Below are positions 8,007 to 20,253 of a stretch of 64,000 nucleotides of DNA, one piece after another. The position numbers were made by a program, and so were the translations under genes. Numbering within the stretch: the stretch's first letter is position 1; each line of letters opens with the position of its first letter. This DNA comes from a virus. A model generated the notes under the pieces. The model did not search any database, had not been told where the DNA came from, and saw only the letters and a program-made list of their open reading frames with translations. The stretch is from the IMG/VR virus record IMGVR_UViG_3300011008_000186. One strand, 5' to 3'.

Positions 8007-8035
8007 TTCATATAAGCATATTAATTTTTCGCGAA
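8007..8035 (-). promoter_or_regulatory. TTCGCGAA-type promoter-like element, copy 1
   Basis: Minus strand TTCGCGAAAAATTAATATGCTTATATGAAG, ~55 nt upstream of the 7951 start. Confidence 0.5.
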
Positions 8036-8057
8036 GCATTCTTTTTAATTTAAAATA

Positions 8058-8831
8058 TCAACCATACCGATGCACATAATCAGCATGGAAATCCACTCCG
8101 ATCTCAACTACAATCGCAGCTTCGCCAGTTGCAGGACAAGAAACAGTATAATGTTCAATATCTAACGAGAGATTCTTAAGATCACCCTCATCGAGTCCCA
8201 ATTCCCATCCTATGCGACAATAATCAAGATCAAGAAAGTTTCTCCAATCATTTAATGCAGCATTACCGTTTGCTATTTCATCTTTTAATCTCGTGAAAGC
8301 TTCGGCCACCGCGGCGTGACTGGACCTAAAGAATTTATCACTTTGAGGTTCGTAGAATAGAATCTCTCCATGATTTGTCGTAGCTATATCGGATACATCG
8401 TAATGATCTTTATTGTCCTCAACAATTTCTTTACGAACTTGATCCTCTATAACTTTTGTTGCTTCCTCGCCAATTTGTTTCTTTGTTTCTTCCAAAAGTT
8501 TTTCTTTACTGGCTTCGGCCAAAGCAAGGCCTGCCTGAAGCGTATTAACACGTTTCTCTTGGTCGACATCCGAAACTACTATTGCCGACGTGGAAGCAAT
8601 CGCTACGGAGAAGGGAACTACATAGTACTTCCATCCGATTTTAATAATTTGTTTTGGAGTAAGTTTATCAACCCCAAGACGTTCTTTTTCGGCATCTACT
8701 GCTCTCGTAGCTTTAACTGTTCTGCATACAGCCCAGACAGAAGCTCCCCACATGCCGGCAACACCAACGCCGGTTAATATTTTGCTTCGGTTTTGAGCCA
8801 TAAACTTAGAAAAGTTACTGCTTGCTTTCAT
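8058..8831 (-). CDS. Membrane protein (paralogous architecture to 5790-6704)
   Basis: ORF track. Helices ILTGVGVAGMWGASVWAV and YYVVPFSVAIASTSAIVV, followed by a coiled-coil-like segment. Confidence 0.55.
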   Translation of the reverse strand: MKASSNFSKFMAQNRSKILTGVGVAGMWGASVWAVCRTVKATRAVDAEKERLGVDKLTPKQIIKIGWKYYVVPFSVAIASTSAIVVSDVDQEKRVNTLQAGLALAEASKEKLLEETKKQIGEEATKVIEDQVRKEIVEDNKDHYDVSDIATTNHGEILFYEPQSDKFFRSSHAAVAEAFTRLKDEIANGNAALNDWRNFLDLDYCRIGWELGLDEGDLKNLSLDIEHYTVSCPATGEAAIVVEIGVDFHADYVHRYG

Positions 8832-8833
8832 TG

Positions 8834-9016
8834 TTACTCCTTCCCTTCGGTGGTAACAGGTTCGTTTTTGTCTTTCTTGGGCAGAAGCTTAATATCACAG
8901 ATTCGCTTTGTCGGATCTATTACTGACGCTCCGATTGTTGCAAATCCGGCTATTGCGCCAAGTGATACAGATAGAATCTGTAGCCCTACTCCAATAGGCA
9001 TGTTTTTGATTGACAT
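8834..9016 (-). CDS. Small membrane protein
   Basis: 60-aa ORF, hydrophobic GVGLQILSVSLGAIAGFATIGA. Confidence 0.45.
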   Translation of the reverse strand: MSIKNMPIGVGLQILSVSLGAIAGFATIGASVIDPTKRICDIKLLPKKDKNEPVTTEGKE

Positions 9017-9046
9017 AGTTACAAATCTCCTTTCAATTAAAAATAT

Positions 9047-9083
9047 ATAAAAAAGAAAAGAGGAGACTTTTTTAAATCTCCTC
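9047..9083 (-). terminator. Rho-independent terminator
   Basis: GAGGAGA/TCTCCTC 7-bp stem followed by a T-run on the minus strand. Confidence 0.65.
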
Positions 9084-9092
9084 TAATCTTAA

Positions 9093-9212
9093 TTAACCTT
9101 TTCTTCCAAATCGCTTGGAAGGATTTACACAAAAGGTACCAATAATAGTTACAATACTGCCCGCACATGTTAATACTGCTCCTGCAATTAAAACTAATAC
9201 TACTACTAACAT
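9093..9212 (-). CDS. 39-aa hydrophobic micro-protein (below the ORF-track cutoff)
   Basis: Hand translation gives MLVVVLVLIAGAVLTCAGSIVTIIGTFCVNPSKRFGRKG. SD AGGAGGATTAATAAAATG. Has its own promoter-like element and terminator. Confidence 0.4.
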   Translation of the reverse strand: MLVVVLVLIAGAVLTCAGSIVTIIGTFCVNPSKRFGRKG

Positions 9213-9243
9213 TTTATTAATCCTCCTATTTTGTGAAAGTTTA

Positions 9244-9275
9244 TTCTTATCATAATAGAGGACTAAAATTTCGCG
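9244..9275 (-). promoter_or_regulatory. TTCGCGAA-type promoter-like element, copy 2 (variant CCGCGAAA)
   Basis: Minus strand CCGCGAAATTTTAGTCCTCTATTATGATAAG. Confidence 0.45.
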
Positions 9276-9276
9276 G

Positions 9277-9933
9277 CTAATGACAATCCTGGTAATCCGG
9301 TCTCGGCGGCTCCGGATAAGTTAAAATATAATAATACGATCCATCATCTCGAACCACCTTTTGATGCTGAAAGTCTATCCATTTACAAAATTCTTTGTCC
9401 CAGCAATATACATCTCCTAATGCATTTCTTGGACGATCCTGCTGCAAAGATAAATAAAAATAAAAATCATTAAGATAAACTTTGTCGGACAATGCGAATA
9501 TCCGGTTGATGTCATACTCCGCAGCAAATAAATCCATCAATCGAATCTGAAACCAGCCGGCATTTTCTTCTTCGGATTCTCTTCTAAAATCTTCAAATAT
9601 CCATACAAGGTCATCGAGATCTTCATCTATTATGATTTCCTGACGTTCGATCATTTCCTTTAAACCGGATGCAGCAAGTAAACCACCACCAGCCAAGGTC
9701 GACAGTAATGCAGCTTTTTGTTTTCTGTTTAGTACATCAGAAAATATAATAGACGCACCCGTAACACCAAACGATATAGATGTCGGTATGTAATGTTTCA
9801 GAATTTGCTTTTTAGGTTTGCCCGATTCGATATCTGTAAATGCCTTAAGAGTATCATGAATCGCCAAAGCAGTAGTTGTTGCTAAACCCGCCATGCTGGT
9901 TACGGTTAATATCGTCGACAATTTATTATTCAT
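9277..9933 (-). CDS. Membrane protein (paralogous architecture to 5790-6704 and 8058-8831)
   Basis: ORF track gives 9277-9948. The second ATG at 9933 has a GAGGA SD. Helices LSTILTVTSMAGLATTTALAI and ISFGVTGASIIF. Confidence 0.55.
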   Translation of the reverse strand: MNNKLSTILTVTSMAGLATTTALAIHDTLKAFTDIESGKPKKQILKHYIPTSISFGVTGASIIFSDVLNRKQKAALLSTLAGGGLLAASGLKEMIERQEIIIDEDLDDLVWIFEDFRRESEEENAGWFQIRLMDLFAAEYDINRIFALSDKVYLNDFYFYLSLQQDRPRNALGDVYCWDKEFCKWIDFQHQKVVRDDGSYYYILTYPEPPRPDYQDCH

Positions 9934-10411
9934 GGTCGTCGTCCTCATTAATAGGCGGAGTCATTTTAGTAGAAAAATCTCCTTCCATTGCGCATATAAA
10001 AGCCATATTACATGCAGCATGTTTATAATGCGGAATGCCTGATTCTGAATCGACTCCTGCTGGATCATCAATATACGCAAGAAGATGACGAAGCAAAGCA
10101 TCCACGTATCGTTTCTTTTCTACAGTCTTCCAATTGTCTGGATCACCATATTTTTTATTACCATACATTCTGACCTCAGCAATATCACGAATGATCTGTG
10201 TTGGAACCAAGCTGATCTGAAGCTTTCCTTCATCCGCTTTCGCTGTCTGATTATCCAGAGACAATGACTTTTTAAAATAGTTTTCATATGATACCGGTTC
10301 GGTTGCTAATACATCATCAAATAAGCAATGATCGGCACCTTCCGCCATGTTACGATAATTGAAACTTGATTGCGGATGCCTTTCGTTACCAAATATAATC
10401 TTTTGAGTCAC
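9926..10411 (-). CDS. MazZ-like dNTP pyrophosphohydrolase domain protein (DUF5664-like)
   Basis: Core EGKLQISLVP..YGNKKYGDPDNW..LLRHLLAY..DSESGIPHYKHAACN matches my memory of the dATP/dGTP diphosphohydrolase N-terminal family. GTG start without a clear SD. The first 33 aa are encoded by the 99-bp repeat shared with the polymerase. Confidence 0.55.
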   Translation of the reverse strand: MTQKIIFGNERHPQSSFNYRNMAEGADHCLFDDVLATEPVSYENYFKKSLSLDNQTAKADEGKLQISLVPTQIIRDIAEVRMYGNKKYGDPDNWKTVEKKRYVDALLRHLLAYIDDPAGVDSESGIPHYKHAACNMAFICAMEGDFSTKMTPPINEDDDHE

Positions 10412-10450
10412 GAGCTAAGAAATCGCCTTGAGTATGTTTAAATACTGCTT
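10298..10450. repeat. Repeat locus B: permuted copy of locus A (20 bp + 99 bp + 25-bp unique insert + 15 bp)
   Basis: 10298-10317 = 1316-1335; 10312-10410 = 1204-1302; 10436-10450 = 1303-1317; 10411-10435 has no counterpart. Confidence 0.9.
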
Positions 10451-10778
10451 TGCGACATATCGGCGGTATTCCGTATGTAGAATTTAATGCATTTATCGGC
10501 ATGCGTTTTTGCAATTTTAAACTATTTTTGTAATCATTATCTTTTATTGCGGGTACCGCTCGGCCATCCAAATATTTAATAATAAAATCACCGATATTAA
10601 CTGAGTGAATTTGAGGCAAAGCAATAGAGTTAATATCTGGCGAAGATTCATAAAATAAGATCGATACACTAAAATCTTCAAGATGCATATGAGTTCTAAT
10701 AAAGCGATCACCTAAAAATTTTTTAACGGAATCCAAATTCTGTCCGGTGTATTCGATTACCTTCAACTTATTATCCAT
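10386..10778 (-). CDS. Hypothetical protein; its 3' end lies inside repeat locus B
   Basis: 130-aa ORF with SD AGGAGG. Removing the 25-bp insert 10411-10435 would fuse it in frame to 9926-10411. Confidence 0.5.
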   Translation of the reverse strand: MDNKLKVIEYTGQNLDSVKKFLGDRFIRTHMHLEDFSVSILFYESSPDINSIALPQIHSVNIGDFIIKYLDGRAVPAIKDNDYKNSLKLQKRMPINALNSTYGIPPICRKAVFKHTQGDFLARDSKDYIW

Positions 10779-10802
10779 TTTTCTAATTCCTCCTAAATAT
10801 AA

Positions 10803-10991
10803 TTAAGCTTTGGGCTTACCTACTATACCTTCGTCCCATGCTTTCCAAGCCTCTTTCGGCGTTTCATATCCATACGAAGTTCGTTTTCGGCAGTTTGGAC
10901 AGCTGATCCAATAAACATCCATACTTCTTTCATCAGCAGAAGTTTTATGATACTCATTTACTTTCGGAACTTTTCCGCAGCACTTTCGCAT
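10803..10991 (-). CDS. Lar-like restriction-alleviation zinc-ribbon protein
   Basis: CCGK..ISCPNCRKRTSYGYETPKEAWKAWDEG resembles the Lar family pattern (Cys pairs, then eA..aWN). Confidence 0.45.
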   Translation of the reverse strand: MRKCCGKVPKVNEYHKTSADERSMDVYWISCPNCRKRTSYGYETPKEAWKAWDEGIVGKPKA

Positions 10992-11151
10992 CCGAATCTC
11001 CTTTCTTCCAGTGAACCGGTTTATGTGAATTAGTATTCACCGGCTCGTCGAGGCAGTCATCGCATGGGCTGTCTTCTTCTGCTTTGCCGTAGAATCTGCA
11101 AGTAGGACAATAAACATCAAAAAACACTTCCTTGAGTTCGTTTACTTCCAT
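10954..11151 (-). CDS. Small zinc-ribbon protein
   Basis: 65-aa ORF with CPTC...CDDC. Confidence 0.45.
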   Translation of the reverse strand: MEVNELKEVFFDVYCPTCRFYGKAEEDSPCDDCLDEPVNTNSHKPVHWKKGDSDAKVLRKSSESK

Positions 11152-11153
11152 TA

Positions 11154-11774
11154 TTAATTCTCCTTTTTTCGTATATCGATACGACCGTAGTCATAAATAT
11201 CAATAGCAACTTCAAAATCCGCATGTGGCGAATTCAATACAACTTCGTCTATCTGTGTATCGAATATCGGACTATTCGAAAAATTCTCCGTGAACTTACT
11301 AACATTTTCAGCAAATGCCTCTGCGTCTTCTTTCCTTCTGAAGAAATAATAATCTTCAAACGGATCGCCATCATCATATGGGTTATCAGACAGTACCGTG
11401 CATCGATAAGTTGTAATATCGCATCCATAAAGTGATTGTAAGCGGTTTACATCTTTTGAAGTGTGGCCATCCCAATGCTTAGCTGTTTCGAGTTCCTGGC
11501 ATGTAAACTTATACCAATGCTTAAGTTCATAATGATAAGTATATGATCCTCTTGGCGTATCGATCCCGACTATAAAGTATTCACCATTAAAACATGGACT
11601 TCCATCTTCATGTCTTTTGCTTTTCCAAGATCGCTCAGGATAAGCATCAACTAAAGCTATTGTTAAATATAATCTCTGCTCATAAAGATCGTTGAATGTA
11701 TGATAACCATCGGACAACTCTCCGATTCCACCCTCTGGTATTTTTGTTAATAAATCTCTAGCTAACTCTGCCAT
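11154..11774 (-). CDS. WDGH-domain-like protein
   Basis: 206-aa ORF with SD AGGAGG. Contains YHTFNDLYEQR and KHWDGHT signatures. Confidence 0.5.
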   Translation of the reverse strand: MAELARDLLTKIPEGGIGELSDGYHTFNDLYEQRLYLTIALVDAYPERSWKSKRHEDGSPCFNGEYFIVGIDTPRGSYTYHYELKHWYKFTCQELETAKHWDGHTSKDVNRLQSLYGCDITTYRCTVLSDNPYDDGDPFEDYYFFRRKEDAEAFAENVSKFTENFSNSPIFDTQIDEVVLNSPHADFEVAIDIYDYGRIDIRKKEN

Positions 11775-11801
11775 TTTAATTACCTCCTATTTTTAGACAA
11801 T

Positions 11802-11835
11802 AAAAAGGAGCGGTTTAAAGTCTCGCTCCAAGACT
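11802..11835 (-). promoter_or_regulatory. Conserved hairpin element (T-element), copy a, variant stem
   Basis: Plus-strand GGAGCG-gtttaaagtct-CGCTCC. It has the same 11-nt loop as the other five copies, and its innermost stem pair is G-C instead of A-T. Confidence 0.6.
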
Positions 11836-11861
11836 GTTTTAGTGGTTTAAAATATAATTAA

Positions 11862-12197
11862 TTATTCATCGAATGCCGGACAACTCGCTTTACATTCTGG
11901 ATAAGGTCCACCACAATTAGCGCATCCCCATGGGATATCACTAGTGTCTTCATATTCCCAATCGTCTTCGTCCATAGTATATCCGCAATTAAAGCATTTA
12001 AATTCTCGTTCCAAATTGCTGTATCTCATCTCAATACCGCATTCGGGGCAATTTGGACAAAAGCCGGAATAATCAGGAATATCATGATAACCTTCGTCAT
12101 CATCATCGGGACCATATCCGTGAAGTCGATCGTGCGCATATGAGCTTTCCGGATGATCGCCAGAACCAGAAAATATATTACCTAAAAACTTGAACAT
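11862..12197 (-). CDS. Acidic Cys-rich (multi zinc-ribbon) protein
   Basis: 111 aa; CPNCPECG..CFNCG..CANCGG..CKASC; D/E-rich. Confidence 0.55.
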   Translation of the reverse strand: MFKFLGNIFSGSGDHPESSYAHDRLHGYGPDDDDEGYHDIPDYSGFCPNCPECGIEMRYSNLEREFKCFNCGYTMDEDDWEYEDTSDIPWGCANCGGPYPECKASCPAFDE

Positions 12198-12259
12198 TGT
12201 GCAACCTCCTCTTAATTTGTAAGGAGATTATACAATGTTTCAACAAGTTTTACTATATT

Positions 12260-13246
12260 TTATTTCGATTCTTCCAAAATGTTTATTCCGATTTTTTCTT
12301 TGACTTTTAGCGCAATTTCATTGATCGATTTACGTCCAAGATTCCTAATATTTTGGAGTTGTTCAAGATGAGATTTTCCCGGACGCGAATCCAAATAGCA
12401 CAATAGATCGTCAATTGTATGTATCCCTTTCCGGATAAGACAGTTGCGGGATCTTACTGACAGTTCAAGTTCATCGATGGACTCTAAATATAAATTTATT
12501 TCGTTGACGTCCACATCTTTCGAATTAATTAATTGAGTTTTTCTTTTAATATATTCTTCATACTCTTTTTCAAAAAGCTCAATCTCTTTCTTTCGCTGAC
12601 ATCCATTATAGCCATATAATATCAATGCGCTACGAGAACTATGACGCATTTTTCGAACAGCTTTGGCAATTATCTGCCGTATTCGCTCTCTAGTAACATG
12701 AAACTTTTTTGCAATTTCATCATACGTCTCATTATTCTGATAGTAGCAAATAATACAATCCCTTTCTCTCTGTGAAAGCATCTGCAGCGCATTTGCTAAA
12801 CCTTGTTCCTGATCGTTAGTAAGCATAGAGTTGCCATTCAAATAATCGCTTCCGTTAAAAATAACATCGAGCAGGTTATAAGGATAAGGAGCAATAAAAC
12901 CATCCGGTATTTCAATAGTTTTATTCTTATTCCTTGGAACTTTCTGAGAATAAAGATACTGTTCATATGAATTTCTACGGGCTAAATTGTAAAAATTAGC
13001 AAGTAACATCTTTATATCATGTTCTTCTAATTCGGTCAGGTTCGTTCTTCCTAAAATATAATCTGTCGGAACCATAAAGAAATCGGCCATCGCCATCAAA
13101 GTATTAACAGTCGGAGCTGCGTACATGCCGATGTAATTTTTTAACTGAGTTTCCTTGATTCCTATTTTTCTAGCGAGATCTCTTTGCGAAATCTGAGCCA
13201 AATCCATTAGTTCTTTTAATTTACTTGAATCCCATTTTTTATTCAT
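12260..13246 (-). CDS. Chimeric transcription factor: XRE-type HTH + sigma-70 region-4-like + RNAP alpha C-terminal-domain-like
   Basis: N-terminal ISQRDLARKIGIKETQLKNYI (XRE helix-turn-helix, HTH). Middle LSQRERDCIICYY..TYDEIAKKFHVTRERIRQIIAKAVRKMR (sigma region 4). C-terminal IDELELSVRSRNCLIRKGIHTIDDLL..IRNLGRKSINEI (alphaCTD helix-hairpin-helix). No sigma region 2 seen. Confidence 0.7.
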   Translation of the reverse strand: MNKKWDSSKLKELMDLAQISQRDLARKIGIKETQLKNYIGMYAAPTVNTLMAMADFFMVPTDYILGRTNLTELEEHDIKMLLANFYNLARRNSYEQYLYSQKVPRNKNKTIEIPDGFIAPYPYNLLDVIFNGSDYLNGNSMLTNDQEQGLANALQMLSQRERDCIICYYQNNETYDEIAKKFHVTRERIRQIIAKAVRKMRHSSRSALILYGYNGCQRKKEIELFEKEYEEYIKRKTQLINSKDVDVNEINLYLESIDELELSVRSRNCLIRKGIHTIDDLLCYLDSRPGKSHLEQLQNIRNLGRKSINEIALKVKEKIGINILEESK

Positions 13247-13248
13247 AT

Positions 13249-13611
13249 CTAATTCTCCTTATTTTGTTTTTTTTTTTGGCACCAAATCGGTTGATTATCA
13301 TTTTCATCAATATCATCGTTCTCTGAAAATTTATGAAGCGTATTCAATCCAAAGCATTCGTTCGTGAATAGATCCATACACCCTAAACATCCGGAAGGAA
13401 TGATACTTTTCAATGGTTTTTCGTTATCTCTGATAAGAAAGCCACAATTCTGCATGTCATTAATATACTCTTCGAATACGGTGCCCTGAAATAAAGAAGA
13501 GAGAGGGATAAATTGATCCCCCTCGTCGTTCATGATTAATCCAAAATTCCGTTTAATTATTGCAAATTGATTACGAAATTCACTTTTATCTAGTTCTGCT
13601 GCTAAAATCAT
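13249..13611 (-). CDS. Hypothetical protein
   Basis: 120-aa ORF. TAG stop 2 nt upstream of the next ATG. Confidence 0.55.
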   Translation of the reverse strand: MILAAELDKSEFRNQFAIIKRNFGLIMNDEGDQFIPLSSLFQGTVFEEYINDMQNCGFLIRDNEKPLKSIIPSGCLGCMDLFTNECFGLNTLHKFSENDDIDENDNQPIWCQKKKQNKEN

Positions 13612-13631
13612 ATTCTAGTCCTCCATTTTTA

Positions 13632-14045
13632 CTATTCATTTTCCCGAAGTACTTTTTCAAAGGCCAGATCAAGACCAACTGCTACAGCCATTAATAATTC
13701 TTTGGATCCCTGCGGATCTGTGGCTATACTATCTATGAATTCCAATATTTCTTTTTCAGAATTGCTTTTTGAAAGAGCTTCTTTGGTTCCAACATCAATT
13801 TTCAAACTTTCAAAAATCATTAACATCGTTTCCTTAGCTTTACTCGGATTAATATCTATCAAATCCACAAGCATATTTATCGATTTGTAAAACTGCGGAA
13901 AACCATCGAAAATCCGGTTCCCATCGGTACTTTTAACTATTCGAGAGACCGATGGATAAACTGAATTTGTAAACTCCATAAGATCATTTGTGCGAAGATT
14001 TCCAGAAGTGAATACCTCGTTAAGTCTTTCCTGTGTTGTTAACAT
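13632..14045 (-). CDS. Hypothetical protein
   Basis: 137-aa ORF, SD AGGAGGAG. Confidence 0.55.
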   Translation of the reverse strand: MLTTQERLNEVFTSGNLRTNDLMEFTNSVYPSVSRIVKSTDGNRIFDGFPQFYKSINMLVDLIDINPSKAKETMLMIFESLKIDVGTKEALSKSNSEKEILEFIDSIATDPQGSKELLMAVAVGLDLAFEKVLRENE

Positions 14046-14325: not shown

Positions 14326-14356
14326 AGAAAAAGAGCCTCTTAGAATCGAGACTCTT
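14323..14356 (-). terminator. Rho-independent terminator
   Basis: GAGTCTC/GAGGCTC 7-bp stem (one G-U pair), then TTTTTCTTTT on the minus strand. Confidence 0.6.
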
Positions 14357-14379
14357 CGTCTTAAAATATAATCTTCGAG

Positions 14380-14760
14380 TTACTTCTTTAATGGTAAGCT
14401 GAAAAGATTTCTTTTCATGGTTTTTCCATATTCAGTTGTATCGATCATACCTGCCGCATTAATCGAATCAGCATGCTTAATCGCAAATGCCTGTGCACCA
14501 ACACCGATACCAGTTGTTGCCAATGTTGTCGCTATACTAACTTTAGAAATAACATTTTTGGCTTTCTCAACCTCTAATGCATCTCTTTTGTCTCTGATTT
14601 CCGACAATTCTTTAGCATTACTAATAAAGGTATTAGCGTCATCGGGATCACTGCTATTAGCAGCCTTCTCCAATTGCGCAACCATAAGATCGTCAATCTG
14701 GTTACGAATTTCCTGTTCATGTTTCTTTTTTTCTTTCCTTTCTTTAAACCATCTAAACAT
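14380..14760 (-). CDS. Hypothetical protein with a hydrophobic segment
   Basis: ORF track gives 14380-14790. ATG at 14760 has the SD AAAGGAGG. Hydrophobic segment VSIATTLATTGIGVGAQAFAI. Confidence 0.55.
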   Translation of the reverse strand: MFRWFKERKEKKKHEQEIRNQIDDLMVAQLEKAANSSDPDDANTFISNAKELSEIRDKRDALEVEKAKNVISKVSIATTLATTGIGVGAQAFAIKHADSINAAGMIDTTEYGKTMKRNLFSLPLKK

Positions 14761-14785
14761 ATCGTTACCTCCTTTGATTTTATAT

Positions 14786-14815
14786 TTCATAATAGTGCTA
14801 TAATTTTTCGCGAAT
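14786..14815 (-). promoter_or_regulatory. TTCGCGAA-type promoter-like element, copy 4
   Basis: Minus strand TTCGCGAAAAATTATAGCACTATTATGAAA. Confidence 0.5.
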
Positions 14816-14850
14816 ACAGAATATAATAAATTGTTGTCACCTGCGTCGGA

Positions 14851-15060
14851 TTATTCGATCAGACTTTGTTCGGCTTTATCTAAACCATCTAACCATAACA
14901 TAAATTTTCTACAGCATGATGGGCATAAGTCAAGTTCGGACTCGTCGTACTTTGCCAGCTCATCATCGCAGAACCGAGCAACACTCGCGTCAATAGTGAC
15001 GACGACCCGATGATAGTCGTCTACTATTCTGCGACATTTGTCACAAAAATGTTTTACCAT
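14851..15060 (-). CDS. Small zinc-ribbon protein
   Basis: Internal start at 15060 with SD AAGGAGG; MVKHFCDKC...CPSCC. The 169-aa track ORF is an upstream read-through. Confidence 0.5.
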   Translation of the reverse strand: MVKHFCDKCRRIVDDYHRVVVTIDASVARFCDDELAKYDESELDLCPSCCRKFMLWLDGLDKAEQSLIE

Positions 15061-15062
15061 AT

Positions 15063-15158
15063 TTAATCCTCCTTGTTTGAAAATAGTAATACAAAAGCGA
15101 TAAAACCCAAGTTGCCTCCTAAAAGAAATGCAATTGGTAAATACCACCACGGTATCAT
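15063..15158 (-). CDS. 31-aa hydrophobic micro-protein
   Basis: Hand translation gives MIPWWYLPIAFLLGGNLGFIAFVLLFSNKED. ATGA overlap with the upstream stop. Confidence 0.35.
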   Translation of the reverse strand: MIPWWYLPIAFLLGGNLGFIAFVLLFSNKED

Positions 15159-15421
15159 AATTCTTCTCCTTTCTCTTCGTAGTATTCATCGTCTTCAAAT
15201 ACTTTTCTAAAATTAACAGCATGGCGAACGTCAGTAGTTCGTTTACAATCCGGAAAGCATTTACCATCTTCGCATCTCTGCCGATCGCAAATATAAGTAA
15301 CTTTAGGACAAATAGGCATATTTTTAATAACTGTAATAACCCAGGTGGGTACATCGGCATTAATTTTTTCAGATATACTAAGTCTTTTTAAAAGATCATT
15401 TTTATCGATATATTCGTTCAT
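15155..15421 (-). CDS. Cys-rich small protein
   Basis: 88-aa ORF; CPKVTYICDRQRCEDGKCFPDC. Confidence 0.5.
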   Translation of the reverse strand: MNEYIDKNDLLKRLSISEKINADVPTWVITVIKNMPICPKVTYICDRQRCEDGKCFPDCKRTTDVRHAVNFRKVFEDDEYYEEKGEEL

Positions 15422-15448
15422 AATGGTAGTTAACCTTTCATTATTTAT

Positions 15449-15796
15449 TTATCCTCTATCGTTTATCATGGTAGTTCCTATAGCATATGTTCTTCCGCAA
15501 TAAGGACACATAAATATATGCTTATTGGCGTTCAGTTCTATTGTTCCTCCACAAGAATTGCATTTGTGTTCCAGAACAGGAACTTCTGATAAAGATTGCA
15601 TGAATTCTTCGAATAATGCTTTCTTAACATTATCTGACAAATTAATTTCAAATTCTCCTTGCGAAACGCGTATCTTATTAATGAACCGATGATCACTCGA
15701 AGTTGCTGGCTCATAAATTTTGGAGTTTCTTCTCCCTCCTGGTGTGGTAATTAACGTATTCGACATATCACTTACATTAATTGTAGCTTGGTCCAT
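15449..15796 (-). CDS. Zinc-ribbon protein
   Basis: 115 aa; CNSCGG...CPYCG. Start context AAAGGAGATTATATTTATG. Confidence 0.55.
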   Translation of the reverse strand: MDQATINVSDMSNTLITTPGGRRNSKIYEPATSSDHRFINKIRVSQGEFEINLSDNVKKALFEEFMQSLSEVPVLEHKCNSCGGTIELNANKHIFMCPYCGRTYAIGTTMINDRG

Positions 15797-15828
15797 AAAT
15801 ATAATCTCCTTTCATTATTAAAATGAAA

Positions 15829-15900
15829 CAACGGCAGCAGGAATCGAACCTACATATACTGGGTCAAAGCCAGTCACACTCACCATTGTGCTATGCCGCT
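15829..15900 (-). tRNA. tRNA-Gln (anticodon UUG)
   Basis: Hand fold: acceptor AGCGGCA/TGCCGTT, D arm GCAC/GTGT, anticodon stem ACTGG/CCAGT with loop CTTTGAC, T arm GTAGG-TTCGATT-CCTGC. CCA is not encoded. Confidence 0.8.
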
Positions 15901-15932
15901 AAAAAGAGCAGTTTAAAGTCTTGCTCAGGACT
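15901..15932 (-). promoter_or_regulatory. Conserved hairpin element (T-element), copy c, abutting the tRNA 5' end
   Basis: aaaaagagcagtttaaagtcttgctcaggact. Its T-run ends at the first tRNA nucleotide. Confidence 0.6.
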
Positions 15933-15940
15933 ACTTCGTA

Positions 15941-16456
15941 TTACTCTATTTTTATTCCGGTTATTTCTTCAAAAATATCCGCATCAAAATTGGGTAATGC
16001 CTTGATTTTTTCTTCATCGCCGTCAATAAGTGTTTTATCATTTATGCGGCAGCATAATTTGCAAAAATTATAATCAAGCGCATTCAGCCATTCACTTCTT
16101 GTCATGTCATATTCCCGGTTAAATGCTCTCAGCTTCGGTTCGTTCGTATTGAATATTCCACTGTTGTAGTTTCCACTGTTGTAGTTTCCGCTGTTCCAGT
16201 TTCCACTGTTGCAGTTTCCGCTGTTGTGTCTTCCACTGTTCCAGTTTCCGCTGTTCCAGTCTCCACTGTTCCAGTGTCCACTGTTGCGCATTCCGCTGTT
16301 GTAGTATCCACTATTGTGCATTCCGCTGTTGCAGTTTCCGCTGTTGCAGTTTCCGCTGTTGCCGTTTCCGCTGTTGCAGTTTCCACTGTTGCGCATTCCG
16401 CTGTTGTAGTATCCACTATTGTAGTTTCCACCAAAACTTTGTCCCTTCCTGTTCAA
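15941..16456 (-). CDS. Pentapeptide-repeat protein (about 20 x NSGxx) with a globular C-terminal domain
   Basis: GNYNSGYYNSGMRNSGNCNSG... with strict 5-aa periodicity. TTG start. Overlaps the upstream ORF by 41 nt in another frame. Confidence 0.65.
   Translation of the reverse strand: MNRKGQSFGGNYNSGYYNSGMRNSGNCNSGNGNSGNCNSGNCNSGMHNSGYYNSGMRNSGHWNSGDWNSGNWNSGRHNSGNCNSGNWNSGNYNSGNYNSGIFNTNEPKLRAFNREYDMTRSEWLNALDYNFCKLCCRINDKTLIDGDEEKIKALPNFDADIFEEITGIKIE
16146..16432. repeat. 15-nt-period tandem DNA repeat encoding the pentapeptide array
   Basis: Repeating ttccactgttgcagt-like units. These explain the spurious ORFs 16129-16434(-) and 16226-16489(+). Confidence 0.85.
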
Positions 16457-16661
16457 TATTCCCTAATGCTTCTATTACGGCAATCTTAGTCTCGCCGTCC
16501 ATTGGATAATAGCCGAATACGTCTATTGGGTTTGCGCAAAAGTGGAATCCGCATTTGCACATCTTTAACTTTTCTCCCTCGGCAAGTTCATATGTCTTTC
16601 CGATTTCATACTGGAAATCTCTACACGTCCAATCTTTGTTAAATGCCTTATACCCTTTCAT
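16416..16661 (-). CDS. N-terminal module usually fused to phage pentapeptide-repeat proteins (possible frameshifted single gene with 15941-16456)
   Basis: MKGYKAFNKDWTCRDFQYEIGKTYE..CGFHFCANPIDVFGYY matches, from memory, the usual N-terminus of this phage protein family. SD AGGAGG. Ends in TAG inside the overlap. Confidence 0.55.
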   Translation of the reverse strand: MKGYKAFNKDWTCRDFQYEIGKTYELAEGEKLKMCKCGFHFCANPIDVFGYYPMDGETKIAVIEALGNIEQEGTKFWWKLQ

Positions 16662-16683
16662 TTTTAATTCCTCCTAATTTTTA

Positions 16684-17523
16684 TTAATTCCAGCAATAAA
16701 TGCCTCTTTCTGTGTAAATATAATCGTTCGGAATTGTGCAGCCATTACAATATTTACAATACGTAGGATCCTGATAACACATAAGTAAATAATCATATGC
16801 GTAATCAGCAATTCCAAGACTATCCATCCAGGTTCCATATTGGGTGTCTATTTCGCCAAAAGCAGAATATAAATTTCCATACCCCCAATAGTCTTCCGTT
16901 GCACGAACCCAACAGCAACATGCGACATAATAGCTGAGCATGCTCTCTCCGTAACCTTCATAGGTTATAAGCTTAAGTGTTCTTTCAGTGTCTAAGTGAC
17001 TAATACCATACCGATCAAGCCCAAGTTCAAATACATCATCAGATGAATCGAACACAATTGGCTGATCAGGAATCTCGGCATAAGCTAAAGATTCTTGTAT
17101 ATTATTATTACTCGCGATTTTAGGGGTAATATGCGAACATAATTCGTCTATTGCTTGCTGCACTTCATCGAATCGATCACCGAGAGCTATTTTTCTTTCC
17201 TCGCCATTGCCAAAAGATCCTTGAAGCACTGCATCAATGAGTTCGTCAATAGTCATGGAAGAAATATAATCTTCCGTTTCGATTTTTACATTAACTTCTA
17301 CATCGGTTTCTTCCACAAAAGTTTCTTCCGAGTCAGATGACGATTCTGGAAATTCTTCGGCAACGGCGACTCTCGGTATCGAGGTCTCCAAAATAGTTTC
17401 GGTTGTTTCTTGAGTCGTTTCCTCGATTAGTTCATTTGAGTTATTATGCTCACTTATAAATACCAATGTTGCAGCTGAGATAATAACTACAATAATACAT
17501 ATTACTGCGTACTTTGCTTTCAT
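16684..17523 (-). CDS. Secreted or anchored cell-wall-binding protein (CW_7-like motif) with a possible cell-wall hydrolase domain
   Basis: N-terminal helix AVICIIVVIISAATLVFI. IDELIDAVLQGSFGNGEERKIALGDRFDEVQQAI resembles the Cpl-7 (CW_7) repeat. The Cys/aromatic-rich C-terminal domain is unassigned. Confidence 0.45.
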   Translation of the reverse strand: MKAKYAVICIIVVIISAATLVFISEHNNSNELIEETTQETTETILETSIPRVAVAEEFPESSSDSEETFVEETDVEVNVKIETEDYISSMTIDELIDAVLQGSFGNGEERKIALGDRFDEVQQAIDELCSHITPKIASNNNIQESLAYAEIPDQPIVFDSSDDVFELGLDRYGISHLDTERTLKLITYEGYGESMLSYYVACCCWVRATEDYWGYGNLYSAFGEIDTQYGTWMDSLGIADYAYDYLLMCYQDPTYCKYCNGCTIPNDYIYTERGIYCWN

Positions 17524-17548
17524 GTTTCATACTCCTTTAAATAAAAAT

Positions 17549-17579
17549 AAAAGAGCAGTTTAAAGTCTTGCTCAGGACT
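17549..17579 (-). promoter_or_regulatory. Conserved hairpin element (T-element), copy d
   Basis: aaaagagcagtttaaagtcttgctcaggact, directly upstream of the SD of 16684-17523. Confidence 0.6.
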
Positions 17580-17624
17580 TATACAAAGGAGTACGATTAT
17601 GGACATACTCCTTCTGATCTAATT

Positions 17625-17648
17625 AAAAAGAAGAGCCTTAGTAGGCCC
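17625..17648 (-). terminator. Weak rho-independent terminator
   Basis: GGGCC-TACTAA-GGCTC, then TTCTTTTT on the minus strand. Confidence 0.45.
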
Positions 17649-17727
17649 TTCCCTTATGCATAAACTCGATTATTGCTTTTATAATACCCCGTACTGTTTC
17701 TATTGCTAGTTCAATTCTAATCGTCAT
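17638..17727 (-). CDS. 29-aa micro-ORF
   Basis: MTIRIELAIETVRGIIKAIIEFMHKGRAY; SD AAAGGAGAATACGCCATG. Low confidence. Confidence 0.25.
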   Translation of the reverse strand: MTIRIELAIETVRGIIKAIIEFMHKGRAY

Positions 17728-17765
17728 GGCGTATTCTCCTTTCTGTAAAAAACATAATCTTGTTT

Positions 17766-17797
17766 CTGCATAATAGGACAACTAAAAATCGCGAAAA
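17766..17797 (-). promoter_or_regulatory. TTCGCGAA-type promoter-like element, copy 5 (TTCGCGAT variant)
   Basis: Minus strand TTCGCGATTTTTAGTTGTCCTATTATGCAG. Confidence 0.45.
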
Positions 17798-17818
17798 AAA
17801 AAGAGAGCCCACGCCCTC
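17794..17818 (-). terminator. Rho-independent terminator
   Basis: GAGGGC-GTGG-GCTCTC, then a T9 run on the minus strand. Confidence 0.6.
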
Positions 17819-17832
17819 TTAACTATTTGCAA

Positions 17833-18138
17833 TTAATATTCAATGACGCTTATAGTACCGTCATCGTTAATAACTGTCTGATAGTTAGAGTTCATAGACT
17901 CCTCTTTTTTGCTAACAATTTCTTTTGCTTCTTTCAAGACTTTAAGTCCATTCGTTACTCGTTTTGCGTGCCAAGGCAATAAAACTACCTCAGCGATCGT
18001 TGCTGCTGTTAGAACTGCTGCAGTCTTCTTAACTGCTTTTTCATCTGCAAGCATGTCAAACGTTTCTGCAAGATCTTCTGAGGCCTGTTTAAAATCATCC
18101 TCGGTTACTCCAAAACCTAAATATCTTTTAATGTTCAT
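17833..18138 (-). CDS. Hypothetical protein
   Basis: 101-aa ORF, SD AAAGGAGAACATTATG. Confidence 0.55.
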   Translation of the reverse strand: MNIKRYLGFGVTEDDFKQASEDLAETFDMLADEKAVKKTAAVLTAATIAEVVLLPWHAKRVTNGLKVLKEAKEIVSKKEESMNSNYQTVINDDGTISVIEY

Positions 18139-18178
18139 AATGTTCTCCTTTCATATATAAGCAAACACTAATAGTTAT

Positions 18179-18207
18179 CTTCATATAAGGAGACCAAAAT
18201 TTCGCGA
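18179..18207 (-). promoter_or_regulatory. TTCGCGAA-type promoter-like element, copy 6 (consensus)
   Basis: Minus strand TTCGCGAAATTTTGGTCTCCTTATATGAAG. Confidence 0.55.
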
Positions 18208-18216
18208 AAAAAAAAA

Positions 18217-18248
18217 AAAGAGAGCAGTTTAAAGTCTTGCTCAGGACT
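18217..18248 (-). promoter_or_regulatory. Conserved hairpin element (T-element), copy e
   Basis: agagagcagtttaaagtcttgctcaggact. A T13 run joins it to promoter-like copy 6. Confidence 0.6.
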
Positions 18249-18262
18249 TTGAATATTATTAA

Positions 18263-18577
18263 TTAACTGATATACTCCGATCTTATTTTCTGAAGCACAA
18301 TACTTAGTACTCTGTTCTCTGCCATTGTGTTTAGTTTTCTTGTGACAAATGGTGCCAAAGCAAATTGCAGAGCGTAACCAACATTAAACATCGCTTCCTC
18401 TTCATCTAAGTTTGATATAAGTTCATCAAAATCAAATGTCTCGTCATCGATCATTTGTTGTATTGCATTCTCTGCAGCTTTTGCTGCAACATCATTATCC
18501 AATAAAACTTTTATAGCATTAAACGGAGTTCCTGGTAAAAATGTTCTGATAATAAATTTTTTAATGCCCTTATTCAT
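18263..18577 (-). CDS. Hypothetical protein
   Basis: 104-aa ORF, SD AGGAGGTAATTGATATG. Confidence 0.55.
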   Translation of the reverse strand: MNKGIKKFIIRTFLPGTPFNAIKVLLDNDVAAKAAENAIQQMIDDETFDFDELISNLDEEEAMFNVGYALQFALAPFVTRKLNTMAENRVLSIVLQKIRSEYIS

Positions 18578-18607
18578 ATCAATTACCTCCTAAAATATAA
18601 TATTATT

Positions 18608-18636
18608 CTTCATATAAGGAGACTAAAATTTCGCGT
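18608..18636 (-). promoter_or_regulatory. TTCGCGAA-type promoter-like element, copy 7 (overlaps the stop of the ATPase gene)
   Basis: Minus strand AACGCGAAATTTTAGTCTCCTTATATGAAG. Confidence 0.5.
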
Positions 18637-19273
18637 TCCGATATCTTCTATCTTTTGTTTTCTTGGTCTTTAAAATATAATCTCGATACTCTTCGTAATT
18701 AGCAAAAGTAATATATTTGCCAACTGCTACATCAAGACATTTTTCACCGCGAGCAAGTTCGTATTCATTTGCTGCCGCAACAATATAAATTGCAACATTT
18801 TTATTAGTATCAATAATGGCATCGAACAATTCTTTGAGCTCGATAATGCCATCAATCGAAAAACCAGAATCTACAGAATCCATTAATATCCATATTTCCT
18901 CAATACCAATGCGAGCACGAATATTTGTACCTATCTTTTTAGCAAATAAATGTAAATTCTGTTTTATACGTTCGCCTTCTGACGACATTACTTGATCGGC
19001 GAGAAGATCGTAACGTTGAAGTTGCAAGAATTGCTGCCAATTATTTCCGCTGCCATCATGTAAATTATCATATGCTATATATAAAACATTATGCTTCTTA
19101 CATTGTTCCTCTATATTATTTAATAAAGTAGTTTTGCCAATTCCGTTGCACCCGACAAGAACAGTCAGACCGAGCTCAAATTGTATCTCTCGTTTATAGG
19201 TTGTCGAGAATCCAATATCATAAGGATCCCTCCAAGTTTTTATCAGCCCATTTAATTTTCCAAACGAGTTCAT
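18623..19273 (-). CDS. Minimal ABC/SMC-type ATPase
   Basis: Start moved to 19273 (SD AAAGGAGATCGCATAATG). Walker A GCNGIGKTT, signature-like SSEGE, Walker-B-like WILMDSVDSG. Confidence 0.6.
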   Translation of the reverse strand: MNSFGKLNGLIKTWRDPYDIGFSTTYKREIQFELGLTVLVGCNGIGKTTLLNNIEEQCKKHNVLYIAYDNLHDGSGNNWQQFLQLQRYDLLADQVMSSEGERIKQNLHLFAKKIGTNIRARIGIEEIWILMDSVDSGFSIDGIIELKELFDAIIDTNKNVAIYIVAAANEYELARGEKCLDVAVGKYITFANYEEYRDYILKTKKTKDRRYRNAKF

Positions 19274-19292
19274 TATGCGATCTCCTTTCTGC

Positions 19293-19340
19293 AAAAAAAA
19301 AATAAGAAAAGAAAAAGAGGACATCATTTCTAATGTCCTC
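19293..19340 (-). terminator. Rho-independent terminator
   Basis: GAGGACAT/ATGTCCTC 8-bp stem followed by a T-rich tract on the minus strand. Confidence 0.7.
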
Positions 19341-19351
19341 AACATTTCTAT

Positions 19352-19627
19352 TTAGTCTACTGAGTGAAACTCGATGTTCGTGAAATGCGGATCTGATGAC
19401 ATGTTAAATTCGAATTCAATTCCTGCTGCATCAAACGTCATTGATAATTTATCATCTTTTACCAACATACAATAACTACCACCATCGGGCGTCATCATTG
19501 CTACGCCGTAATTTTTCTCATTATCAATAATGTTAATTACAACATTATTGTATTCGCCGTTACTGTCAATAAATCCAGCTTCAACTAAAGATGTTCCTCT
19601 TTGTACTGAAATAAAATGTTTCTGCAT
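19352..19627 (-). CDS. Hypothetical protein
   Basis: Start moved to 19627 (SD AAAAGGAGGAAC). The longer track ORF reads through the promoter-like element. Confidence 0.55.
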   Translation of the reverse strand: MQKHFISVQRGTSLVEAGFIDSNGEYNNVVINIIDNEKNYGVAMMTPDGGSYCMLVKDDKLSMTFDAAGIEFEFNMSSDPHFTNIEFHSVD

Positions 19628-19671
19628 TGTTAAGTTCCTCCTTTTCGTTTTTACAAAATTGTTATATATCT

Positions 19672-19700
19672 TTTCATATAAGGAGACCAAAATTTCGTGA
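19672..19700 (-). promoter_or_regulatory. TTCGCGAA-type promoter-like element, copy 8 (TCACGAAA variant)
   Basis: Minus strand TCACGAAATTTTGGTCTCCTTATATGAAAAG. Confidence 0.45.
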
Positions 19701-19706
19701 GAAAAA

Positions 19707-19738
19707 CAAAAGAGCAGTTTAAAGTCTTGCTCAGGACT
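19707..19738 (-). promoter_or_regulatory. Conserved hairpin element (T-element), copy f
   Basis: aaaagagcagtttaaagtcttgctcaggact, immediately upstream of promoter-like copy 8. Confidence 0.6.
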
Positions 19739-19755
19739 ATACCGATGGTTATAAT

Positions 19756-19971
19756 TTACCAAATAGACATTAAGGTTTCTTTAATAAAAAGTGCATCTTC
19801 ATCGCCGTCTCTTATCGAGTCGTTCAACCATTCAATCGTGCAATCTCTATGTTCATCATCGGTGTTTCTTATAGCATCGATGATATCGGGATTACAAGCT
19901 TTTAAATAATTAATAAACTCTTCTTGCTCGACATTTTCGCAAATATTGTTTGCACATACAGTAATTTCCAT
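19756..19971 (-). CDS. Small acidic hypothetical protein
   Basis: Start moved to 19971 (SD GGGGAAAGGAGAAC); MEITVCANNICENVEQEEF... Confidence 0.5.
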   Translation of the reverse strand: MEITVCANNICENVEQEEFINYLKACNPDIIDAIRNTDDEHRDCTIEWLNDSIRDGDEDALFIKETLMSIW

Positions 19972-20011
19972 AATGTTCTCCTTTCCCCATTGACGCAAAT
20001 TAATATTCATC

Positions 20012-20041
20012 TTTTCATATAAGGAAACCAAAATTTCGCGA
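20012..20041 (-). promoter_or_regulatory. TTCGCGAA-type promoter-like element, copy 9
   Basis: Minus strand TTCGCGAAATTTTGGTTTCCTTATATGAAAAG. Confidence 0.55.
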
Positions 20042-20049
20042 AAAAAAAA

Positions 20050-20222
20050 TAGAGAGAAACAAGAATGGCTGGACCGCCACTTATTATGCACTTTAACCGA
20101 ATATAATTCGTAACTCCTTGCGGATATTTATTTCAAAGCTTCGGCGCCCTTACATCTTGGGGGTGCATTACCTGCCCCGAAGGCCAATTAACAGTATACA
20201 TTCCTGTATACCTGACACATTC
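20050..20222 (-). ncRNA. Candidate structured small RNA (GC-rich island without a credible ORF)
   Basis: Lies between promoter-like copy 10 and a T9 run. Contains the GTATAC-AGGAAT-GTATAC hairpin, CUUCGG...CCGAAG and GGGG...CCCC pairings (20130-20185), and a weak GUGGC-GGUCCA-GCCAU hairpin before the T-run. Only GTG or no-SD micro-ORFs are present. Confidence 0.35.
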
Positions 20223-20225
20223 TTG

Positions 20226-20253
20226 TTCGTATAAGGAGACCAAAATTTCGCGA
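20226..20253 (-). promoter_or_regulatory. TTCGCGAA-type promoter-like element, copy 10
   Basis: Minus strand CTCGCGAAATTTTGGTCTCCTTATACGAAC. Confidence 0.5.

Follow-up and report, generated by a model that had tools for sequence, protein, structure and literature searches.

The 64-kb stretch of viral DNA considered here (64,000 nucleotides (nt) of IMG/VR record IMGVR_UViG_3300011008_000186, analysed over its whole length and hereafter called the window) carries on one strand of its early region a series of near-identical copies of a ~30-nt element, and the question raised by this locus is what these repeats do and which RNA polymerase reads them. The element is very probably a promoter, and it is well supported that each copy, usually as part of a terminator-promoter cassette, starts its own small transcription unit. 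By sequence comparison, it is the form taken in the window by an old promoter family that is common to a supercluster of phages comprising Faecalibacterium phage FP_oengus, the Lactococcus 1706-like phages, and many actinophages. As to the reader, we tentatively favor the supercluster's own YonO-like single-chain, two-barrel RNA polymerase over the host enzyme.

The original prediction listed ten minus-strand copies and proposed a genome-wide motif scan. All ten are real and form a gap-free minus-strand alignment anchored on C-CGA, the listed starts being 0–3 nt off. A 31-nt position weight matrix (PWM) was built from these ten copies and used to scan both strands of the 64 kb; the scan returned all ten with scores of 28–48 versus a shuffle maximum of 14 and added one new copy at 20546–20576, bringing the total to eleven, with no copy beyond these. 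A search with the 29-nt consensus allowing up to three mismatches gave five matches, versus none in 100 shuffles. The ~6 kb of parent contig past the window's left edge holds no further copy. The eleven copies are as follows:

20546–20576, minus strand: motif copy 1, TTCGCGAATAATTCTCGCTCTATAATGAAAA, PWM score 19.7, with a perfect TATAAT in the AT box and a predicted start G at 20550
20224–20254, minus strand: motif copy 2, CTCGCGAAATTTTGGTCTCCTTATACGAACA, located after a hairpin and T-run and heading a non-coding unit
20012–20042, minus strand: motif copy 3, TTCGCGAAATTTTGGTTTCCTTATATGAAAA, found by consensus and PWM, terminator at 20081–20064
19671–19701, minus strand: motif copy 4, CTCACGAAATTTTGGTCTCCTTATATGAAAA, found by consensus and PWM
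18607–18637, minus strand: motif copy 5, AACGCGAAATTTTAGTCTCCTTATATGAAGA, overlapping the 3' end of the open reading frame (ORF) at 18623–19345
18178–18208, minus strand: motif copy 6, TTCGCGAAATTTTGGTCTCCTTATATGAAGA, equal to the window consensus
17765–17795, minus strand: motif copy 7, TTCGCGATTTTTAGTTGTCCTATTATGCAGA, found by PWM, terminator at 17820–17801
14784–14814, minus strand: motif copy 8, TTCGCGAAAAATTATAGCACTATTATGAAAT, found by alignment and PWM
14294–14324, minus strand: motif copy 9, TTCGCGAAATTTTGACTCCCTAATACGAGGA, terminator at 14357–14330
9247–9277, minus strand: motif copy 10, GCCGCGAAATTTTAGTCCTCTATTATGATAA, adjoining the 3' end of the DUF6353 ORF at 9277–9948
8005–8035, minus strand: motif copy 11, TTCGCGAAAAATTAATATGCTTATATGAAGA, terminator-like site at 8088–8062

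Nine motif columns are invariant in the window (C3, C5, G6, A7, C20, T21, T24, A25, and G27), and the five copies that lie within 2.1 kb (18178–20254) differ at 0–2 of 29 positions, the distal copies being more diverged. All copies lie on the gene strand and are intergenic, with three overlapping or adjoining the 3' end of the preceding ORF; copy 1, for example, overlaps the final codons and stop of a 135-amino-acid (aa) ORF at 20566–20973. Seven copies are preceded by a hairpin and T-run, four of which were called by a terminator scan and the others (at least three) by eye. Start codons follow at motif columns 42–85, that is, 11–54 nt past the motif, and at copy 9 the Shine-Dalgarno sequence GAGGAGG begins at the conserved G of column 27. 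A sigma-70 consensus scan of positions 7000–22000 called none of the eleven copies: TTCGCG in the window copies lies 14 bp from the AT box, and there is no -35 at 16–18 bp. The view of the repeats as promoter-like, intergenic elements of a single orientation and of a non-sigma-70 type is supported, as is the layout of one promoter per small gene, often with a terminator. That every copy precedes a Shine-Dalgarno sequence and start codon holds in general but not for copy 2, which heads ~180 nt of non-coding sequence and a terminator:

20046–20228, minus strand: candidate small non-coding RNA, ~180 nt, between copy 2 and the next terminator

Modeled from the conserved G, this RNA would pair its first 11 nt with the 11 nt before the terminal U-run; its overall fold has a z-score of just -1.3, and an Rfam scan of it returned no match. 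At the analogous place in a related locus (L003, 10893–10972) there is a non-coding RNA of different sequence with a z-score of -3.5.

Alignment across lineages places the element in a common frame, CGC(G/A)-N7-ACA-N5-T(A/T)(A/T)(A/T)(A/G)TG-ARA, in which CGC occupies columns 3–5, ACA columns 13–15, the AT box columns 21–26, the G column 27, and ARA columns 28–30. The window copies match this family frame in register at CGC, the AT box, G27, and ARA, and likewise are intergenic, on the gene strand, and in the non-structural arm; ACA is absent from them and replaced by GGT or AGT. Four lytic phages carry the element in register, namely Lactococcus phage P078 (TTTAAGTTTTACATACCCTATAATGAAAGG, at least 6 copies), in which CGC is absent, Streptomyces phage Scap1 (TCGCAAGTTTTACAGCCTCTATAGTGAGACCCC, 6 copies), Gordonia phage Gravy (TCGCAGAAATTACACGTCCTATAATGAGACCCC, 10–11 copies), and Arthrobacter phage CapnMurica (CTCGCAAGAATTACACACCTTATAATGAGAAG, at least 9 copies). 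The 8 copies of FP_oengus all share the strand of the genes, and none follows the polymerase gene. Because the same columns are kept across phages with unrelated flanks, spacers, and host phyla, the core is under functional selection. The original prediction had instead placed at the core the palindrome TTCGCGAA, which is perfect in only 6 of the 11 window copies, is replaced in relatives by CACGCAAAA, GACGCGAAA, AGCGCGAAA, or TCGCAGAAA with no conservation of its TT...AA arms, and is missing altogether from P078; this part of the prediction does not stand. The CGCG tetranucleotide is indeed depleted in the window, as had been claimed, but only mildly to moderately (51 observed versus 86–129 expected, with 10 of the 51 inside motif copies). 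As to the AT box, one window copy has TATAAT, as do P078, Gravy, and CapnMurica, and the remaining window copies read TTATAT, TATTAT, or TAATAC. Gut relatives have TTTAAT, TTTTAT, or CTTTAT, frequently with T in place of A-11. Degenerate boxes (TTATAT, TTTAAT, CTTTAT) are found in integrase phages that also carry the 135-aa gene.

The phages that carry the motif belong largely to one assemblage. FP_oengus has been grouped with the Lactococcus 1706-like phages and a large actinophage supercluster marked by a YonO-like polymerase that has a DxDGD catalytic loop and, at both ends, helix-turn-helix (HTH) domains (bioRxiv 10.1101/842583). Its clusters are taken here as Streptomyces BI according to that preprint, Gordonia DJ by analogy with phages Vardy and Conley, and Arthrobacter Gordonvirus; a tblastn search with the YonO-like polymerase recovered 250 phage records among Arthrobacter, Gordonia, Streptomyces, Lactococcus, and gut siphoviruses. 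In IMG/VR, 12 of 12 loci with a 41–59% identical 135-aa gene carry the motif on the gene strand, with the order terminator, motif, Shine-Dalgarno sequence, and ATG at each copy. A scan of IMG/VR by pattern only returned more than 120 loci, of which 115 hold a copy (58 multi-copy, 57 single-copy); supercluster proteins, counted as the polymerase, gp56, DUF6353, DNA polymerase, or the 135-aa protein, are encoded by most of the multi-copy loci and by 41 of the single-copy loci. Megablast of the motif region against GenBank phages gave no match, nor did a scan of host genomes for the exact window consensus, the latter being uninformative.

The motif has been glimpsed before. Announcements of the Gordonia DJ phages Vardy and Conley describe a 50-bp or 43-bp intergenic motif and interpret it as a sigma-70 -10 promoter; neither announcement connects it with other clusters, Firmicutes phages, or the polymerase (PMC9671010, PMC10868162). 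The Gravy copies resemble that motif in being intergenic, mid-genome, and situated before small genes beside terminators, and, provided that Gravy is a DJ phage, they are presumably the same element. The window version differs from the Gravy/DJ version in reading CGCGAAA, in lacking ACA, and in its degenerate AT box. Already known, then, are repeated phage-specific promoters as a kind and the motif as seen in the DJ-cluster announcements; new, as far as the searchable literature goes, are the in-register conservation across phyla, the co-distribution with a YonO-like polymerase, and positional evidence for a start at the G.

That positional evidence comes from RNA features downstream of the motif. 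Among ~55 copies, column 27 is the earliest position at which a Shine-Dalgarno sequence starts, and 7 start at columns 27–32. In relatives, copies stand directly before transfer RNA (tRNA)-like genes and small RNAs with a terminator immediately upstream; the first base of the tRNA-like acceptor stem falls at column 28 in FP_oengus and at column 31 in L005, with a terminator directly 5' of the motif at each such gene. RNAs modeled from G27 have a closing helix running from nt 1–2 to the U-run at six loci in four phage lineages (the window small RNA, L003, L011, FP_oengus, L005, and Gravy), with z-scores of -3.1 to -4.4 in three. G27 itself does not vary in any lineage, and purines come after it. 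Because Shine-Dalgarno sequences, tRNA-like stems, and closing helices all begin there, at an invariant G followed by purines, transcription probably starts at column 27, plus or minus one base, which would put the AT box at -6 to -1. A sigma-70-type start 6–8 nt past the AT box would cut into these Shine-Dalgarno sequences, stems, and helices, and the AT box is therefore probably not a -10 element. For the same reason, the proposal that the AT box acts as a -10 with the palindrome near -30, in the manner of MotA-dependent promoters, does not fit: functional RNA features begin 1–4 nt after the AT box. Two other placements, one taking TTTACA for a -35 that pairs with a -10 further downstream and one taking columns 7–12 for a -10, were rejected for want of a consistent partner hexamer across lineages.

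The tRNA-like genes (FP_oengus, L013, 2935–3006; L005, 9345–9415; L004, ~7942–8012) deserve mention in their own right. Their acceptor stem is 8 bp and their anticodon loop 6 nt long. They start 1–4 nt past the conserved G and are reported by ARAGORN as 'tRNA-???'; compensatory changes between phages in the acceptor stem suggest that they are functional. Elsewhere (L002 at 4747, L011 at 9857, L012 at 9810, and Gravy, L017, at 32312) a terminator hairpin follows right after the motif, with its 5' arm at column 27–28, and such motif-terminator units would yield RNAs of just 30–40 nt; in three gut relatives they lie directly upstream of the 135-aa gene.

How would such a promoter work? Promoters of phage-encoded polymerases are marked by a long near-identical block in which an AT segment directly adjoins the initiating G, and for this reason we favor the following scheme. 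Transcription would start at the invariant G of column 27 right after the AT box; this box, spanning -6 to -1, would serve as the melting region; and the CGC(G/A)A and (T)TACA blocks, between -24 and -12, would be recognized as duplex DNA, on the model of promoters for phage-encoded polymerases such as that of T7, or of the phiKZ TATG box, whose G is +1. The reader would be the supercluster's own YonO-like single-chain two-barrel RNA polymerase. In temperate members, the cascade would be started by a sigma-A-driven, CI-controlled operon encoding a cro-like protein and the 135-aa protein.

The choice of the polymerase as reader is also supported by the distribution of the other candidates. The original prediction had proposed two regulators, the products of the ORFs at 12260–13246 and 20566–20973, and neither is required. 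The first (minus strand) encodes a 328-aa protein with an XRE HTH_3 domain, a sigma-70 region 4, and an RNA polymerase alpha C-terminal domain (alpha-CTD), with Pfam E-values of 1e-9, 3e-16, and 9e-17, respectively; to judge from these matches it is an odd fusion of two host-polymerase DNA-binding modules. It has no close relative in IMG/VR and is missing from all 12 related loci and the relatives examined, and was therefore ruled out as the motif's regulator. The second, the 135-aa protein, is undetected in the four lytic motif carriers: a profile hidden Markov model found no homologue in Scap1 or in the 24–54 kb half of P078, and tblastn of the phage collection matched no Gordonia or Arthrobacter record. 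Conversely, a phage with a 31% identical homologue and without the polymerase carries neither the motif nor any other repeat. The 135-aa protein was accordingly ruled out as a universal reader. Since it is absent from lytic motif carriers and the polymerase-less phage is motif-free, the motif follows the supercluster, and hence the polymerase, rather than the 135-aa protein.

The polymerase genes themselves are linked to the element. A variant motif with the core AAAACATG(C/G)(C/G)C always lies ~0.9–1.1 kb upstream of the polymerase gene (FP_oengus 27682; gut loci L029–L133; Gravy, L017, ~35441; CapnMurica, L018, ~34135), where it heads an endonuclease-exonuclease-polymerase operon in Firmicutes and Actinobacteria phages alike, and in the relatives scanned no copy occurs between the polymerase gene and terL. 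The claim that the motif is confined to the early region thus holds within the visible sequence but not in relatives, in which a copy also heads the polymerase operon. In SPbeta, whose YonO is the namesake of the family, TCATTTATGA(A/G)GG occurs just twice in 40 kb, both times in the yonN-yonK gap, and one of these sites falls between the published primer-extension primers for P_YonO and resembles the start-proximal half of the motif. The two sites lie on the minus strand at positions 60438 and 60595 of the SPBc2 record (L019), and the G within TCATTTATG/AGGG falls at 60438. The link to the YonO start, published as position 2225998 of B. subtilis 168, is approximate and goes by the placement of the primers on that record. 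Promoter recognition by YonO-type polymerases and their need for factors were explicitly left open in the study of YonO (PMC5467207).

Several points weigh against a YonO-like polymerase as the reader. A motif copy, directly preceded by a terminator, heads the polymerase operon itself, and no conserved canonical host promoter was found ahead of this operon, only hits at chance level; were the promoter polymerase-specific, the first polymerase molecules would therefore be unexplained unless the enzyme is injected or packaged with the genome or the operon is reached by read-through. SPbeta YonO transcribes only the late operon (PMC5467207), and the late structural genes here have no motif. Three lytic lineages (P078, Gravy, and CapnMurica) have a perfect TATAAT as AT box, which looks like a host -10. 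The start at column 27 is deduced from downstream RNA and Shine-Dalgarno features. Finally, the polymerase gene of the window phage itself is only predicted: from synteny with relatives, it would lie off the window, in the last 6.7 kb of the 76.6-kb contig Ga0139361_1000164 (JGI 3300011005).

The strongest alternative, which we regard as unlikely but worth serious attention, is that the element is a promoter for the host sigma-A polymerase that needs a phage factor. Here the AT box would be a -10, and a phage protein sitting on the CGC...ACA blocks would make up for the missing -35. The 135-aa protein would be the activator in temperate gut members with a degenerate AT box, the TATAAT promoters of lytic relatives would be constitutive, and the phage polymerase would be made last and then transcribe the late genes as YonO does. 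The gene organization at the lysis-lysogeny switch bears on this idea:

20566–20973, minus strand: 135-aa ORF, phrog_11237, second gene of the immediate-early operon
20970–21161, minus strand: 63-aa cro-like gene, first gene of the rightward operon
21181–21244, minus strand: two sigma-A-type promoters, TTGACT-17-TAAAAT and TTGACA-18-TATATT, of the operon encoding the cro-like and 135-aa proteins
21338–21676, plus strand: cI-like XRE repressor, identified by protein family scan
21677–22726, plus strand: tyrosine integrase, identified by protein family scan

Strong canonical promoters between 7 and 22 kb occur only in this switch, at 21181–21244 (minus strand) and 21277–21305 (plus strand), matching 10–11 of 12 consensus positions; the leftward promoter reads TTGAAC-17-TATAAT. 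The 135-aa gene thus lies in a sigma-A/CI-controlled operon, and the first motif copy is found at its stop codon in three divergent phages, the window phage, L002, and FP_oengus. Among the phages examined, the gene occurs only in integrase carriers, that is, temperate gut members. On this basis, the 135-aa protein may link the lysis-lysogeny switch to the motif program. The AlphaFold2 (AF2) model of the protein is all-helical, with a predicted local distance difference test (pLDDT) score of 84, and a Foldseek search of BFVD showed a weak likeness to small viral proteins, some of which are named transcriptional activator or extracytoplasmic function (ECF) sigma. The perfect TATAAT of P078, Gravy, and CapnMurica, set beside the degenerate boxes of phages with both integrase and the 135-aa gene, also agrees with a host-polymerase promoter, as does the sigma-70 -10 interpretation in the DJ announcements. 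The gene order is well explained, too: a polymerase operon that is always behind a motif, with no motif before terL, fits an SPbeta-like cascade (PMC5467207).

What a host-polymerase promoter explains badly is the geometry, given that Shine-Dalgarno sequences, tRNA-like stems, and small-RNA helices start 1–4 nt past the AT box. In addition, the gut copies do not conserve A-11, and host-type promoters do not usually show 30 nt of conservation between host phyla. The proposed activator is absent from the lytic relatives (P078 having been searched at 24–54 kb), whereas the polymerase is the sole factor identified as common to all motif phages. Nor do databases offer a function for the 135-aa family, which has 946 hits, one Lachnospiraceae genome included: searches against Pfam, NCBIfam, and PDB sequence profiles and a Foldseek search of the model against PDB gave nothing significant, and PHROG returned only phrog_11237, a label without a function.

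Considerably less probable as an account of the locus is that the repeats are mobile or homogenized terminator-promoter cassettes, similar to the promoter-early stem-loop (PeSL) cassettes of T4-type phages, whose near-identity stems from recent duplication, gene conversion, or cassette shuffling and not from selection on every base. This idea is an add-on to either promoter model and not a replacement. The closeness of the five clustered copies and the divergence of the distal ones accord with it, as does the hairpin GAGCAAGACTTTAAACTGCTC, which is shared by the copies at 18208 and 19701 and by a tRNA-Gln gene. So does the nature of the genes served, which are small, variable, and mostly without homologues in relatives. 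Retention of the same columns amid unrelated flanks and spacers and across host phyla speaks against it. The tRNA-Gln(UUG) gene, at 15828–15901 on the minus strand with its upstream region to ~15935, is preceded by GAGCAAGACTTTAAACTGCTC and a T-run and has no motif of its own; it was the sole match of the Rfam and tRNA scans.

A repressor-binding array, in which the CGCG palindrome is an operator that silences the early units in the lysogen, is very improbable. Stoperators of L5 and Bxb1 and the conserved inverted repeats (CIRs) of phiC31 provide precedents; the palindrome is a perfect 8 bp in six copies, and a prophage must keep its motif units silent. But the palindrome is not conserved in relatives, and lytic relatives with neither integrase nor repressor carry the motif just the same (PMC9671010). 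The switch, moreover, has operators of its own: TTAAG-N5-CTTAA at 21188–21202 and 21252–21266, the window's only two perfect copies. The switch region (21160–21340) contains no motif copy, just as the original prediction had stated, and combines canonical promoters with these different operators, which rules out the motif as the CI operator. Equally improbable is an element acting at the RNA level, with the CTCC(T) segment (columns 17–21, CTCCT, complementary to a downstream AAGGAG Shine-Dalgarno sequence) or the ATG region serving translation control, or with column 27 as a processing site, where cleavage would also yield the observed helix boundaries: most copies lie right after an intrinsic terminator, so that little upstream transcription should reach them, CTCC/GGAG complementarity is generic, and the conserved CGC and ACA blocks have no rationale in RNA.

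Comparison of gene content and order identifies the window phage as a temperate gut relative of FP_oengus, with 70% identity in TerL, 55% in the portal protein, 50–54% in DNA polymerase, and 61% in the helicase, and the same gene order. FP_oengus-like phages have been reported in up to 40% of human fecal viromes (PMC5883640). The motif region encodes small proteins of no assigned function, an AAA ATPase, a CW_7 protein, a pentapeptide-repeat protein, a WDGH protein, a dATP/dGTP diphosphohydrolase-N protein, the tRNA-Gln, and three DUF6353 paralogues (5790–6704, 8058–8831, and 9277–9948, minus strand); the DUF6353 family is present in 2–3 copies in FP_oengus and all gut relatives, interleaved with motif copies. 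An independent Joint Genome Institute (JGI) contig, L142, has the same structural genes and begins at about window position 63869, for which reason the right end of the window (~63780–64000) may be close to a physical (cos) genome end. In FP_oengus (L013 and L014, ~31660–31760), a GC-rich element of ~80 nt, ATAGGGGGAGGGTC..CACCCCCTCC..ATCGCGGCGGTCTTTAAAATTCCCCGGGGG, lies directly after the polymerase-gp56 genes, and it recurs just after the gp56 homologue in L024, L044–L046, L050, L079, L121, L125, and L131. By analogy with linear actinophage relatives, whose genome ends fall there, it is probably a cos/packaging site. Some 150 nt past it, a long inverted repeat encloses a conserved GCT(T/C)A(T/C)(G/A)GGG box, a possible late promoter or 5' end of a non-coding RNA. 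FP_oengus also has an AT-rich stretch with iteron-like repeats (TTGGCCAAAAACCCACTT / TGGCCACAAAA) at 26900–27100 (L013), which may be a replication origin or protein-binding array, and an unannotated ORF at 27217–27591.

YonO-type polymerases are minimal single-chain relatives of cellular RNA polymerases. If such an enzyme reads the element, this would be the first promoter consensus for its family, a promoter of ~30 nt kept from actinophages to phages of gut Clostridia, and the enzyme would transcribe most of the non-structural genome and its own operon, not only late genes as in SPbeta. If instead the host polymerase reads the motif, the element would still represent an unusual class of -35-less promoters spanning phyla, and how it is kept silent in a lysogen would call for an explanation. 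In either case, a 30-nt element conserved together with a polymerase offers a concrete in vitro substrate for which cultivable phage systems exist (phages of Gordonia, Arthrobacter, and Streptomyces, P078 of L. lactis, and the FP_oengus prophage of F. prausnitzii), and knowledge of the transcription signals of FP_oengus-like phages would help to annotate a common group of the gut virome.

It is instructive to set the element beside characterized systems. Promoters of the T7/T3/SP6 class are read by phage-encoded single-polypeptide polymerases. The motif resembles them in its block of ~25–30 nt, near-identical among many copies, in the AT segment abutting the start, in initiation at a G followed by purines (with the start here deduced from position), and in the provision of one promoter per unit, often with terminators; it differs in that the polymerase here would be of the YonO-like two-barrel type and in showing no promoter similarity beyond a TATA-G flavor. 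Late promoters of the phiKZ non-virion polymerase read 5'-TATG-3' with the G as +1 (PMC4666361), and the motif shares with them a start-overlapping (T/A)ATG that ends in the initiating G, located unlike a bacterial -10 box, and the association with a non-canonical two-barrel phage polymerase. The phiKZ enzyme, however, has several subunits, and no upstream block is conserved in its late promoters, whereas here conservation extends over ~20 nt upstream. The middle-promoter box of phiKZ, AAanTTACc, is superficially like AAATTACAC and was rejected as a counterpart, being at about -24 there versus about -15 here.

As in the MotA/AsiA-dependent middle promoters of T4, a box at about -30 relative to the AT box takes the place of a -35, and it is plausible that an early phage function is needed; unlike in those promoters, the AT box appears to abut the start rather than to lie at -10. 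The motif contains no TGCTT of the MotA box, (a/t)(a/t)TGCTT(t/c)A, its conserved block being CGC(G/A)A..., and Pfam and PHROG scans of 30 window proteins (part of the proteome) found no match to MotA or AsiA. With the PeSL cassettes of T4-type phages and the host-takeover module of SPO1, the locus has in common repeated units of promoter and stem-loop serving small accessory genes in a plastic region, but those systems use host sigma-70 or sigma-A consensus promoters, which the motif does not fit. A further comparison is with SPbeta YonO. YonO drives one late operon from one start site, whereas the motif heads many early or middle units as well as the polymerase operon but does not precede the structural genes. 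Yet the polymerases belong to a distantly related family, both are encoded just upstream of the late genes (PMC5467207), and the primer-bracketed region of P_YonO in SPbeta contains TCATTTATGAGGG, a sequence similar to the motif's start-proximal half.

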